From NCBI RefSeq assembly GCF_017348835.2, contig NZ_CP071375.1: a stretch of 64,000 bases of DNA; one strand, given 5' to 3'. This document shows, piece after piece, positions 8,141 to 11,576 of the stretch. The DNA is from Escherichia coli. Its GTDB lineage: Bacteria; Pseudomonadota; Gammaproteobacteria; Enterobacterales; Enterobacteriaceae. The notes beneath the pieces are model-generated. The model saw only the letters and a program-made list of their open reading frames with translations, had not been told where the DNA came from and searched no databases. How positions within the stretch are numbered: position 1 is the first letter of the stretch; each line of letters starts with the position of its first letter. The position numbers were made by a program, and so were the translations under genes.

Positions 8141-8568
8141 CAAACAATTCCTCTGAAAAGAGCCGATGCCCTGGACAGCGCGGCGTTGTTCACGGGAGGC
8201 GTGGTACACTCTGGCTATCGCGGGGCTTGCAGAACACAAAAATGAAACACTCTGTTTGTTTCATTAATTTTGTGAACTATATCACAATTGATTGTTTGTT
8301 AGCCATATTAGGACGTGACTTTTATTGCTGTACAAATTATGTGGTTTTTCAGTGGCATTAAGGGTATATCTTCCCGCCGCCTCTGTATTCCTGTAGAAAA
8401 TTAATTTTGAATATCAATGAATTATTTTCATCCAGGTGACGATTAAAAAGGTATCAATTTCAAATCAGGCAAAAGTGCTATTTATACCGTAAGATTTATC
8501 TAAAGACGTCGGTAGCCAGGGTTTCACCTTGCAATGGCCGGGTATAAACAGGCAGGAAATTGATAGCA

Positions 8569-10155
8569 ATGAGTCATCGTGCACGACACCAATTACTGGC
8601 GTTGCCGGGCATTATATTTTTAGTTCTCTTTCCCATCATTCTGTCGCTATGGATTGCCTTCCTTTGGGCAAAATCAGAAGTGAATAATCAGCTCCGAACC
8701 TTTGCTCAGCTGGCGCTGGATAAATCTGAGCTGGTCATTCGTCAGGCAGATTTAGTGAGCGATGCAGCTGAACGCTATCAGGGGCAAGTTTGCTCCCCAG
8801 CCCATCAAAAGCGAATGTTAAATATTATTCGTGGCTATCTTTATATTAATGAATTGATCTATGCCCGTGATAACCATTTTTTATGCTCATCGCTGATAGC
8901 GCCTGTAAACGGCTATACGATTGCACCGGCCGATTATAAGCGTGACCCTAACGTTTCTATCTATTATTACCGCGATACGCCTTTTTTCTCTGGCTATAAA
9001 ATGACCTATATGCAGCGGGGAAATTATGTGGCGGTTATCAACCCTCTCTTCTGGAGTGAAGTGATGTCTGATGATCCGACATTGCAATGGGGTGTGTATG
9101 ATACGGTGACGAAAACCTTTTTCTCGTTAAGCAATGAGGCCTCGGCAGCAACGTTTTCTCCGCTGATTCATTTGAAGGATTTAACCGTACAACGAAATGG
9201 CTATTTATATGCGACAGTTTATTCGACAAAACGCCCAATTGCAGCCATTGTTGCGACTTCATATCAACGTCTTATAACCCATTTTTATAATCATCTTATT
9301 TTTGCGTTACCCGCCGGTATTTTAGGGAGTCTTGTTCTGCTATTACTCTGGCTACGTATTCGACAAAACTATTTGTCTCCCAAACGCAAATTGCAACGCG
9401 CCCTCGACAAACATCAACTTTGCCTTTATTACCAGCCAATAATCGATATCAAAACAGAAAAATGTATCGGTGCTGAAGCGTTGTTACGTTGGCCTGGTGA
9501 GCAGGGGCAAGTAATGAATCCGGCAGAGTTTATTCCGCTGGCAGAAAAGGAGGGGATGATAGAACAGGTAACTGATTATGTTATTGATAATGTCTTCCGC
9601 GATCTGGGCGCGTACCTGGCAACACATGCCGATCGCTATGTTTCTATTAACCTGTCGGCCTCCGATTTTCATACGTCACGGTTGATAGCGCGAATCAATC
9701 AGAAAACAGAGCAACATGCGGTGCGCCCGCAGCAAATTAAATTTGAAGTGACTGAACATGCATTTCTTGATGTTGACAAAATGACGCCGATTATTCTGGC
9801 TTTCCGCCAGGCTGGTTACGAAGTGGCAATTGATGATTTTGGTATTGGCTACTCTAACTTGCATAACCTTAAATCATTGAATGTCGATATTTTGAAAATC
9901 GATAAATCGTTTGTTGAGACGCTGACCACCCATAAAACCAGTCATTTGATTGCGGAACATATCATCGAGCTGGCGCACAGCCTGGGGTTAAAAACGATCG
10001 CTGAAGGCGTCGAAACTGAGGAGCAGGTAAACTGGCTGCGCAAACGCGGTGTGCGCTATTGCCAGGGATGGTTCTTTGCGAAGGCGATGCCGCCGCAGGT
10101 GTTTATGCAATGGATGGAGCAATTACCCGCGCGGGAGTTAACGCGCGGGCAATAA
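8569..10155 (+). CDS. pdeC: c-di-GMP phosphodiesterase, CSS-motif periplasmic domain plus EAL domain
   Basis: 528 aa from [13 protein letters not shown]-domain motifs ([22 protein letters not shown]). Confidence 0.92.
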
Positions 10156-10157
10156 AA

Positions 10158-10481
10158 CTACAGGCGGTGGCGATAATCGCTGGGAGTGCGATCAAACTGC
10201 CGACGGAAAACGCGGGAGAAGGTCTGCTGCGAGACATAACCCAGGTCCATTGCGATATCAAAAATCGGACGCTCGGTGGTGCGCAACTCAACGGCGGCCA
10301 GTAACAGGCGGCGTTGGCGAATGTAATCGCCAAGCGTCTGATGCGTCACCGTGCGGAACATCCGTTGCAAGTACCACTTTGAATAGCCTGATTTTTTTGC
10401 GACGACATCAATGTTAAGCGGCTGGTCAATATGCTCGTCAATCCATGCGATAAGATCCTGAATAATTTTCTGATGGGACAT
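10158..10481 (-). CDS. soxS: AraC-family superoxide-response transcriptional activator
   Basis: 107-aa ORF MSHQKIIQDLIAWIDEHIDQPLNIDVVAKKSGYSKWYLQRMF... Confidence 0.97.
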   Translation of the reverse strand: MSHQKIIQDLIAWIDEHIDQPLNIDVVAKKSGYSKWYLQRMFRTVTHQTLGDYIRQRRLLLAAVELRTTERPIFDIAMDLGYVSQQTFSRVFRRQFDRTPSDYRHRL

Positions 10482-10537
10482 AAATCTGCCTCTTTTCAGT
10501 GTTCAGTTCGTTAATTCATCTGTTGGGGAGTATAATT

Positions 10538-10555
10538 CCTCAAGTTAACTTGAGG
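10538..10555. promoter_or_regulatory. SoxR operator in the divergent soxS/soxR promoter region
   Basis: Perfect palindrome cctcaagttaacttgagg between the two start codons. Confidence 0.85.
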
Positions 10556-10566
10556 TAAAGCGATTT

Positions 10567-11031
10567 ATGGAAAAGAAATTACCCCGCATTAAAGCGCTGC
10601 TAACCCCCGGCGAAGTGGCGAAACGCAGCGGTGTGGCGGTATCGGCGCTGCATTTCTATGAAAGCAAAGGGTTGATTACCAGTATCCGTAATAGCGGCAA
10701 TCAGCGACGATATAAACGTGATGTGTTGCGATATGTCGCAATTATCAAAATTGCTCAGCGTATTGGCATTCCTCTCGCGACCATTGGTGAAGCGTTTGGC
10801 GTGTTGCCCGAAGGGCATACGTTAAGTGCGAAAGAGTGGAAACAGCTTTCGTCCCAATGGCGAGAAGAGTTGGATCGGCGCATTCATACCTTAGTGGCGC
10901 TGCGTGACGAACTGGACGGATGTATTGGTTGTGGCTGCCTTTCGCGCAGTGATTGCCCGTTGCGTAACCCGGGCGACCGCTTAGGAGAAGAAGGTACCGG
11001 CGCACGCTTGCTGGAAGATGAACAAAACTAA
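10567..11031 (+). CDS. soxR: MerR-family redox-sensing regulator with [2Fe-2S] cluster
   Basis: 154-aa ORF; MerR helix-turn-helix; cysteine cluster [12 protein letters not shown]. Confidence 0.97.
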
Positions 11032-11170
11032 AGCGCCACAAGGGCGCTTTAGTTTGTTTTCCGGTCTTTGTCTTTCTCTCTATCCCGCTGGTACACAGGA
11101 GGGTTTCCCCCGACGTCAACACACCTCATTCGAGCACGTGGTGGAGGTTCCGGTTGGTGTTGATGCTTTA
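11030..11170 (-). ncRNA. ryjA: Possible small RNA ryjA in the soxR-ghxP spacer
   Basis: Positional recall only; hairpin aaagcgccacaagggcgcttt lies at 11032-11056; no sequence-level verification possible. Confidence 0.2.
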
Positions 11171-11576
11171 ATTGTATGTCACCGACGTTTCTTCGCCAGT
11201 GTAAAAGTATACTTTTTAGCCGCAATATTTTTGTCATCTCAGACGATTTTTTATCGCAATCCTGAACGGTATACGGCTCGATAACGCTGCAATCTTGCGC
11301 ATCGACGATAACGTTTGCGCATCAATTGCCTGGTTTTTCATCGTCAAGACAATAAAAGAGAAAAAAGCAGCAAACTTCGGTTGAAAAAGCCGCTATGATC
11401 GCCGGATAATCGTTTGCTTTTTTTACCACCCGTTTTGTATGCGCGGAGCTAAACGTTTGCTTTTTTGCGACGCAGCAAATTGTCGCAAACCTGGAGCAGG
11501 AAGATAACGTTTCGCTGGCAGGGGATTGTCCGCCACGCATCTTGACGAAAATTAAACTCTCAGGGGATGTTTTCTT

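Follow-up and report, generated by a model that had tools for sequence, protein, structure and literature searches.

A conserved stem-loop in the last codons of pdeC as a candidate 3'-end element of the convergent soxS transcript in Escherichia coli

We investigated the convergent junction between pdeC and soxS in a 64,000-nt stretch of E. coli DNA, referred to here as the window, whose coordinates are used throughout. Gene identities were taken from annotated E. coli records with identical or near-identical sequence (pdeC, soxS and soxR) together with Pfam domain assignments. The junction and its surroundings contain the following features:

8314–8328, minus strand: marbox GCAATAAAAGTCACG between yjcB and pdeC, about 240 bp upstream of the start of pdeC; a candidate site for MarA, SoxS or Rob
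8569–10155, plus strand: pdeC (yjcC) coding sequence, annotated as a CSS-domain/EAL c-di-GMP phosphodiesterase, with the stop codon TAA at 10153–10155
9958–10117, minus strand: C-rich, G-poor stretch in the soxS-sense direction, antisense to pdeC; a candidate rut region by composition only
10122–10153, no strand assigned: GC-rich palindromic stem-loop with 12-nt arms (10122–10133 and 10142–10153) and an 8-nt loop
10156–10157, no strand assigned: the two bases 'aa' that separate the stop codons, read from the raw sequence and the list of open reading frames
10158–10481, minus strand: soxS coding sequence, annotated as an AraC/XylS-type regulator, with HTH_18 and HTH_AraC domains (Pfam)
10158–10355, plus strand: the pdeC-sense RNA past the pdeC stop, antisense to soxS; G-rich, not C-rich, with no terminator-like site

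The mechanically called open reading frame of pdeC opens with TTG at 8560, and the annotated K-12 start corresponds to 8569. In the 531-aa product, the CSS-motif domain spans residues 42–246 and the EAL domain residues 276–508 (Pfam), and the C-terminal 23 residues form a non-catalytic tail past the EAL domain. At the junction itself, the raw sequence caaTAAaaCTAcag places the soxS stop TAG (10160–10158 on the minus strand, CTA on the plus strand) two bases from the pdeC stop, and the first-pass annotation was accurate to the base in describing the two stops as lying 2 bp apart on opposite strands. The two genes are therefore neighbors on opposite strands, arranged tail to tail as in a convergent excludon. 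The same geometry is found in K-12 MG1655 (pdeC 4275471..4277057 on the plus strand, soxS 4277060..4277383 on the minus strand; window coordinate = K-12 coordinate minus 4266902), where the sole difference at the junction is a soxS stop codon of TAA.

This arrangement is the standard E. coli layout, already known and present in every E. coli annotation. Of 5426 complete E. coli genomes, 5425 contain a match to the segment from 9700 to 10600; the 76-nt junction likewise occurs as one copy in 5425, with at least 95% identity in 5423, and the 2-bp spacing is a fixed feature rather than a chance occurrence. Within the surrounding 50 kb of K-12, seven CDS pairs converge, with spacers of 2, 34, 98, 146, 153, 501 and 641 bp, making pdeC/soxS the tightest pair in this one 50-kb sample, yet it is no anomaly. 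Comparison with 80 SoxS-encoding loci (86–100% identity, one genome per species) showed a convergent PdeC homologue downstream of soxS in 69, which, counting the window itself, brings the number of junctions to 70. The stop-to-stop distance falls between −16 (a coding overlap) and +15 in 64 of these 70 junctions: it is +2 in Escherichia and Citrobacter (20 junctions), −16 in Klebsiella, Raoultella, Trabulsiella, Pluralibacter and Yokenella (15 junctions), −4 in Enterobacter, Lelliottia and their relatives (9 junctions), and between −14 and +15 in another 20. Junctions of the −16 group have a 16-nt coding overlap and conserved ends of both proteins, with SoxS terminating in RHQISA and PdeC in QAEI. 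Six junctions lie outside the range, five with bigger gaps (56 and 308–712 bp) and one, at −129, from a partial metagenome contig. Because the −16 to +15 spacing is family-wide, the tight pdeC/soxS junction is ancestral to the Enterobacteriaceae.

The first-pass annotation had also held that the junction leaves no room for terminators. This applies to the 2-bp spacer itself but not to the junction as a whole, since a conserved stem-loop sits inside the end of pdeC. The structure spans the last ten codons of pdeC and the T of the pdeC stop, and its arms are 92% complementary. Read in the soxS sense, the sequence runs UAG-UUUU-AUUGCCCGCGCG-UUAACUCC-CGCGCGGGUAAU-UGCUCC, so that the hairpin starts 4 nt past the soxS stop; the overlap to which soxS is obliged may accordingly amount to only about 40 nt. 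The predicted folding energy is −21.6 kcal/mol on the soxS (minus) strand, with a z-score of −4.84 and none of 200 shuffles as good, and −18.9 kcal/mol on the pdeC (plus) strand, with a z-score of −3.23; the hairpin thus lies between convergent genes and can fold in both transcripts. Hairpins this strong were found in 3.6% of 110 random 103-nt windows from the same 64 kb, a control that includes real terminators. The stem of 12 bp with its 8-bp GC core is of the GC-rich kind seen in intrinsic terminators. A repeated element of the REP type was considered and rejected, as the palindrome occurs once in the window and each E. coli genome carries the junction in single copy. An Rfam scan of 9500–11400 (E ≤ 1) assigned no RNA family to the junction.

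To assess conservation of the helix, 17 junctions (Escherichia, E. albertii, Salmonella, Citrobacter and Intestinirhabdus) were aligned without gaps. The helix is kept, with 85.8% of cells paired compared to 33–52% when the 3' partner was slid by 1–3 columns, and changes on both sides of a pair were observed in 18 cells against 7.6 expected, a count that none of 500 shuffles reached. Such double-sided changes affect 4 of the 12 stem pairs, and RNAalifold independently recovered a 9-bp core. One example is the pair of columns 18 and 47, which is U-A in 7 of the 17 sequences and C-G in 7; the former column falls at the third, synonymous position of the final Gln codon and the latter at the non-synonymous first position of a Leu/Ser/Pro codon, a pattern of covariation that is hard to explain by protein constraint alone. 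Double changes are seen at pairs 25–40 and 26–39 as well. The pairs are thus kept via compensatory changes, as in a structured RNA element, albeit through few independent evolutionary events among related sequences and in a protein-coding region with conserved PA and GQ residues.

The hairpin also persists where its coding context has disappeared. Intestinirhabdus alba lacks pdeC through deletion, and yjcB and ssb come after soxS; it nevertheless retains the hairpin, with unrelated sequence beyond it. In S. enterica arizonae, pdeC is lost too, and a remnant of at least 60 nt has kept the hairpin. Other genera carry different hairpins located 0–40 nt past the soxS stop. Against nine control windows from the same locus, the junction hairpin was equalled by none or only one in 20 of 22 genus-representative loci, and the mean fraction of control windows as good as the junction hairpin was 0.08, with the hairpins of the other clades each only moderately exceptional.

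What this structure lacks is the U-rich tail of an intrinsic terminator. The junction hairpin was not called in a terminator consensus scan, and its soxS-sense tail, UAAUUGCU, holds 4 U in the 8 nt past the GC core and 3 in the 8 nt past the full stem; the tail in the pdeC direction, on the plus strand, is CAAUAAAA. Among the 80 related loci, tails contain 0–4 U in 8 nt, mostly 1–3, and none exceeds 4. A stable stem-loop with no U-rich sequence after it is the configuration seen at Rho-dependent ends with a protective stem-loop. Beyond the soxS stop, the soxS-sense RNA has 34% C and 21% G in its first 100 nt (10058–10157, stem-loop included) and 33% C and 24% G in the next 100 nt (9958–10057), and this base composition makes 9958–10117 a candidate rut region. 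In E. coli, Rho-dependent 3' ends have been mapped directly after stable stem-loops without U-rich tails, with rut sites immediately downstream of the stem-loops (Dar & Sorek 2018, PMC6061677). The soxS junction resembles these ends in having such a stem-loop followed by C-rich, G-poor RNA, and differs from them in that the putative protective structure lies within the coding sequence of a converging gene.

Because the hairpin lacks a U-tract and the antisense RNA after it is C-rich and G-poor, Rho-dependent termination appears to be the most probable fate of soxS transcription. We favor, with some reserve, a reading in which this is an ordinary junction and the conserved hairpin defines and protects the 3' end of the soxS mRNA, by Rho-dependent termination and subsequent trimming. 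Transcription of soxS would run into pdeC and would be terminated by Rho shortly inside it, after which an exonuclease would trim the mRNA back to the hairpin; pausing or termination induced by the hairpin itself might contribute in part. The palindrome can also fold in the pdeC mRNA, at its end, where it may protect a trimmed pdeC 3' end. We infer all three elements of this reading: the hairpin as the actual soxS 3' end, the involvement of Rho, and a small regulatory consequence of the overlap. In the accessible portion of the Term-seq data tabulated by Adams et al. 2021, no 3' end is given downstream of soxS and none for pdeC, and the only 3' end, at K-12 position 4277382, falls at the soxS start codon. 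The missing soxS 3' end in that portion of the tables is probably explained by soxS being barely expressed without induction. A search of the literature on soxS term-seq, antisense, convergent or read-through transcription returned nothing specific.

Several other accounts of the hairpin have to be weighed against this one. The structure could be a weak conventional intrinsic terminator serving soxS only, given its GC-rich 12-bp stem with an 8-bp GC core, its 8-nt loop, its position 4 nt past the soxS stop, the 4 U in 8 nt of its tail and the UUUU present in the Intestinirhabdus tail. However, the tail fell short of the U-tract threshold of the scan, and the ceiling of 4 U in 8 nt across the 80 loci indicates that the U-tract is not the feature being conserved, which makes this account unlikely. 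Collision-type bidirectional terminators between convergent genes were reportedly described by Ju et al. in 2019. In such an element, which is also treated by Wang et al. 2022 (bioRxiv 10.1101/2022.10.23.513370), the hairpin would pause polymerases traveling in both directions, and head-on and trailing collisions would release them, leaving sharp, overlapping 3' ends. The pdeC/soxS hairpin shares with the elements of both studies its location exactly at a convergent gene boundary, its ability to fold on both strands (−21.6 and −18.9 kcal/mol) and its lack of resemblance to an intrinsic terminator. The mechanism needs frequent traffic from both sides, however, whereas traffic at pdeC/soxS is expected to be low or asymmetric, with pdeC weak and soxS silent without induction; moreover, the hairpin persists in Intestinirhabdus, which has lost the converging partner gene. 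We regard a collision terminator as a reasonable though improbable alternative here.

It could also be argued that the hairpin has no function at the RNA level and is a by-product of GC-rich coding sequence whose codons specify the conserved PdeC tail (PA...GQ). The conserved core of the stem, CCCGC/GCGGG, does coincide with the Pro-Ala and Gly-Gln codons, and about 4% of random windows reach a comparable stability. Against this, the tail lies outside the EAL domain and varies between genera in sequence and length, a synonymous site covaries with a non-synonymous one such that pairing is kept, the hairpin survives the loss of pdeC in Intestinirhabdus, and other clades have different hairpins at the same place. 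We therefore consider an origin as a mere coding by-product very doubtful, and we retain the hairpin-bounded, Rho-dependent soxS 3' end as the working interpretation.

The first-pass annotation further proposed that each transcript must enter the other gene, and that this could link c-di-GMP turnover to the superoxide response through transcriptional interference. The former proposal stands, because any 3' untranslated sequence of either gene lies inside its neighbor, and the overlap has also been published: ExcludonFinder (NAR 2025, PMC12288877) lists pdeC-soxS among 165 convergent excludons of MG1655, each found in at least 50% of 58 MG1655 transcriptomes (RNA-seq). The overlap of the pdeC and soxS transcripts is thus geometrically unavoidable and already catalogued. 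Its regulatory meaning is a separate matter. In a functional excludon, polymerase collision or RNase III cleavage of the duplex would render soxS and pdeC expression mutually exclusive and would couple c-di-GMP to superoxide in cis. The stop-codon geometry that forces the overlap, the listing of the pair in PMC12288877 and the adjacency of the genes across the Enterobacteriaceae are consistent with this, as is a pdeC-sense RNA that is not C-rich, has no terminator-like site and could cross the 324-nt soxS. The pair also shares with other convergent excludons a short intergenic distance and conserved synteny, the latter being higher for excludon pairs in general (PMC12288877). However, inverse expression was found for just 20 excludons in that study, with only one gene changing in most pairs, and none was reported for pdeC-soxS. 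In addition, the conserved, strong stem-loop and the C-rich tract should halt most soxS read-through early, and pdeC, which is weakly expressed and sigma-S-dependent according to work cited in PMC3720812, would send few polymerases against an induced soxS promoter.

Published data from Klebsiella bear directly on this point. In strain CG43 of K. pneumoniae, paraquat induces yjcC as well as soxS, yjcC mRNA falls in soxRS and rpoS deletions (PMC3720812), and loss of yjcC sensitizes cells to oxidative stress (PMC3720812; reviewed in PMC7216687). Thus, in a species whose yjcC and soxS coding regions share 16 nt, both genes are induced by paraquat and deletion of soxRS lowers yjcC mRNA; such co-induction is the opposite of mutual exclusion and sets the pair apart from what a convergent excludon would entail. 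A link between YjcC/PdeC and SoxRS has, moreover, already been proposed, on grounds other than interference. Taken with the expression data, a functional excludon seems quite unlikely, and cis-regulatory coupling through interference, while possible, is not favored by the available data. Because of the 16-nt coding overlap in Klebsiella, the drop in yjcC mRNA upon soxRS deletion may itself be a cis effect on the yjcC 3' end, as an alternative to regulation by SoxS.

Control in trans provides a simpler connection. MarA, SoxS and Rob recognize the same class of site, and since a marbox lies upstream of pdeC, any functional link between SoxRS and PdeC could be explained more economically through this candidate site than through the junction. 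In ETEC H10407, a MarA ChIP-seq peak was assigned to 'yjcB<>yjcC' with the marbox gcaataaaagtcacg (PMC5684230), and this sequence has an exact match at 8314–8328 in the window. PdeC is redox-controlled through its periplasmic CSS domain (PMC5897775), in a paper that mentions neither sox, superoxide nor paraquat. The yjcC of PMC6286996 is a plasmid gene and is irrelevant to the pdeC considered here.

In the opposite direction, a scan of the plus strand found no terminator-like site between 8608 and 10636, with the next one inside soxR. The pdeC-sense RNA past the stop has 33% G and 24% C in the first bin and 32% G and 27% C in the second, and folds in 10158–10355 on the plus strand are not significant (z about −1.5). 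Lacking a recognizable terminator of its own, pdeC would have to continue its weak transcription into soxS, and read-through antisense to soxS is expected on these grounds. A far-reaching extension of this expectation, which we consider highly improbable, is that the palindrome is a shared 3'-end element selected for both mRNAs, and that sigma-S-driven pdeC transcription reads antisense through the 324-nt soxS and onward into soxR in the sense direction, damping basal soxS expression and feeding soxR in stationary phase. If this were true, a periplasmic-redox-controlled c-di-GMP phosphodiesterase and a cytoplasmic superoxide sensor would be wired together in cis, in an arrangement conserved across the Enterobacteriaceae with spacers from −16 to +15.

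As a discovery, the junction matters little, and its useful lessons are practical. A missing intergenic spacer does not equate to a missing terminator, as the 3' structure of soxS is encoded in the last codons of its neighbor. Because this structure lies within pdeC codons, tagging PdeC at its C terminus, or deleting either pdeC or soxS, can alter the end of the other gene's mRNA in cis.

A useful point of comparison lies only 0.9 kb away, at the soxR/ryjA (SraL) junction, where ryjA (11024–11164, minus strand) overlaps the soxR stop (11029–11031) by 8 nt. This is likewise a convergent pair with overlapping ends, but it is served by a canonical bidirectional intrinsic terminator, with a 13-bp stem at 11025–11055 flanked by runs of A and T, whereas the pdeC/soxS hairpin has no U-tract in either direction. 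The matches returned by the Rfam scan of 9500–11400 consisted of just SraL/RyjA, at 11024–11164, and one chance match.

A 16-nt stretch is shared by the coding regions of soxS and pdeC (yjcC) in Klebsiella, Raoultella, Trabulsiella, Yokenella and Pluralibacter (L022, L025, L026, L033, L035, L044, L058, L071, L072 and others among the fetched SoxS-encoding loci; around 2815-2830), and both protein tails are conserved in this group, SoxS ending in RHQISA and PdeC in QAEI, each directly before the stop. Deleting soxS or soxRS in these bacteria would cut the 3' end of yjcC, and the drop in yjcC mRNA reported for a K. pneumoniae soxRS deletion could therefore be explained in cis, by damage to the yjcC 3' end.

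In a few species, Kosakonia included, inserted DNA enlarges the interval between soxS and pdeC: the gaps measure 308-712 bp at L049, L053, L055 and L057 and 56 bp at L080, whose insert is a perfect palindrome of 45 nt. No pdeC adjoining soxS was detected at L005, L006, L034, L043, L052, L065, L070, L075, L077 and L081, and the groups concerned are S. enterica arizonae, Intestinirhabdus, Pseudocitrobacter, Kosakonia sacchari and Kluyvera; deletion was confirmed by inspection of ORFs for L005 and L006 only. At the Pseudocitrobacter locus (L034), soxS is followed by a hairpin that resembles a REP element (GCCGGATG...CATCCGGC).

The 3' half of pdeC in this strain is a minority allele, since identity to window 9700-10600 (901 nt) reaches 99% or more in only 11 of 5425 E. 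coli genomes. Nearly all the others are 95-99% identical over this segment, and a 100% match occurs in two pig isolates.

About 240 bp upstream of pdeC lies the following element:

8314-8328, minus strand: exact copy of the marbox from a MarA ChIP-seq peak

That peak was mapped between yjcB and yjcC in ETEC H10407 (PMC5684230), and the exact sequence match suggests that pdeC or yjcB is a member of the MarA/SoxS/Rob regulon. As to the start of the gene, the mechanically called pdeC ORF begins at TTG 8560, and the ATG annotated in K-12 is at 8569, three codons downstream (window 8560-8571).

A strong RNA 3' end is listed at K-12 4277382 on the minus strand in the Term-seq data tabulated by Adams et al. 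2021; this position corresponds to window 10480 and falls on base 2 of the soxS start codon. This 3' end points to either an abundant RNA of ~40 nt from the soxS 5' UTR or premature termination.

Among the 165 convergent excludons in Table 1 of the ExcludonFinder paper (PMC12288877), 8 include c-di-GMP genes, namely, pdeA, pdeB, pdeC, pdeD, pdeR, dgcE, dgcM and dgcQ, against an expectation of about 2.2 for a set of 29 (p about 0.001, hypergeometric test). A stricter null, confined to genes at convergent junctions, weakens this excess to p 0.003-0.1; the excess is not mentioned in PMC12288877.

The next convergent junction in the window, soxR/ryjA, likewise overlaps, the sRNA RyjA sharing 8 nt with the 3' end of soxR:

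11029-11031: soxR stop, in the junction region 11015-11065
11024-11164, minus strand: ryjA (SraL) sRNA, Rfam SraL match, 153 bits

A canonical bidirectional intrinsic terminator, common to soxR and ryjA, lies within this region; its 13-bp stem, at 11025-11055, is flanked by A and T runs and folds at about -22 kcal/mol (z about -5.5) on both strands.
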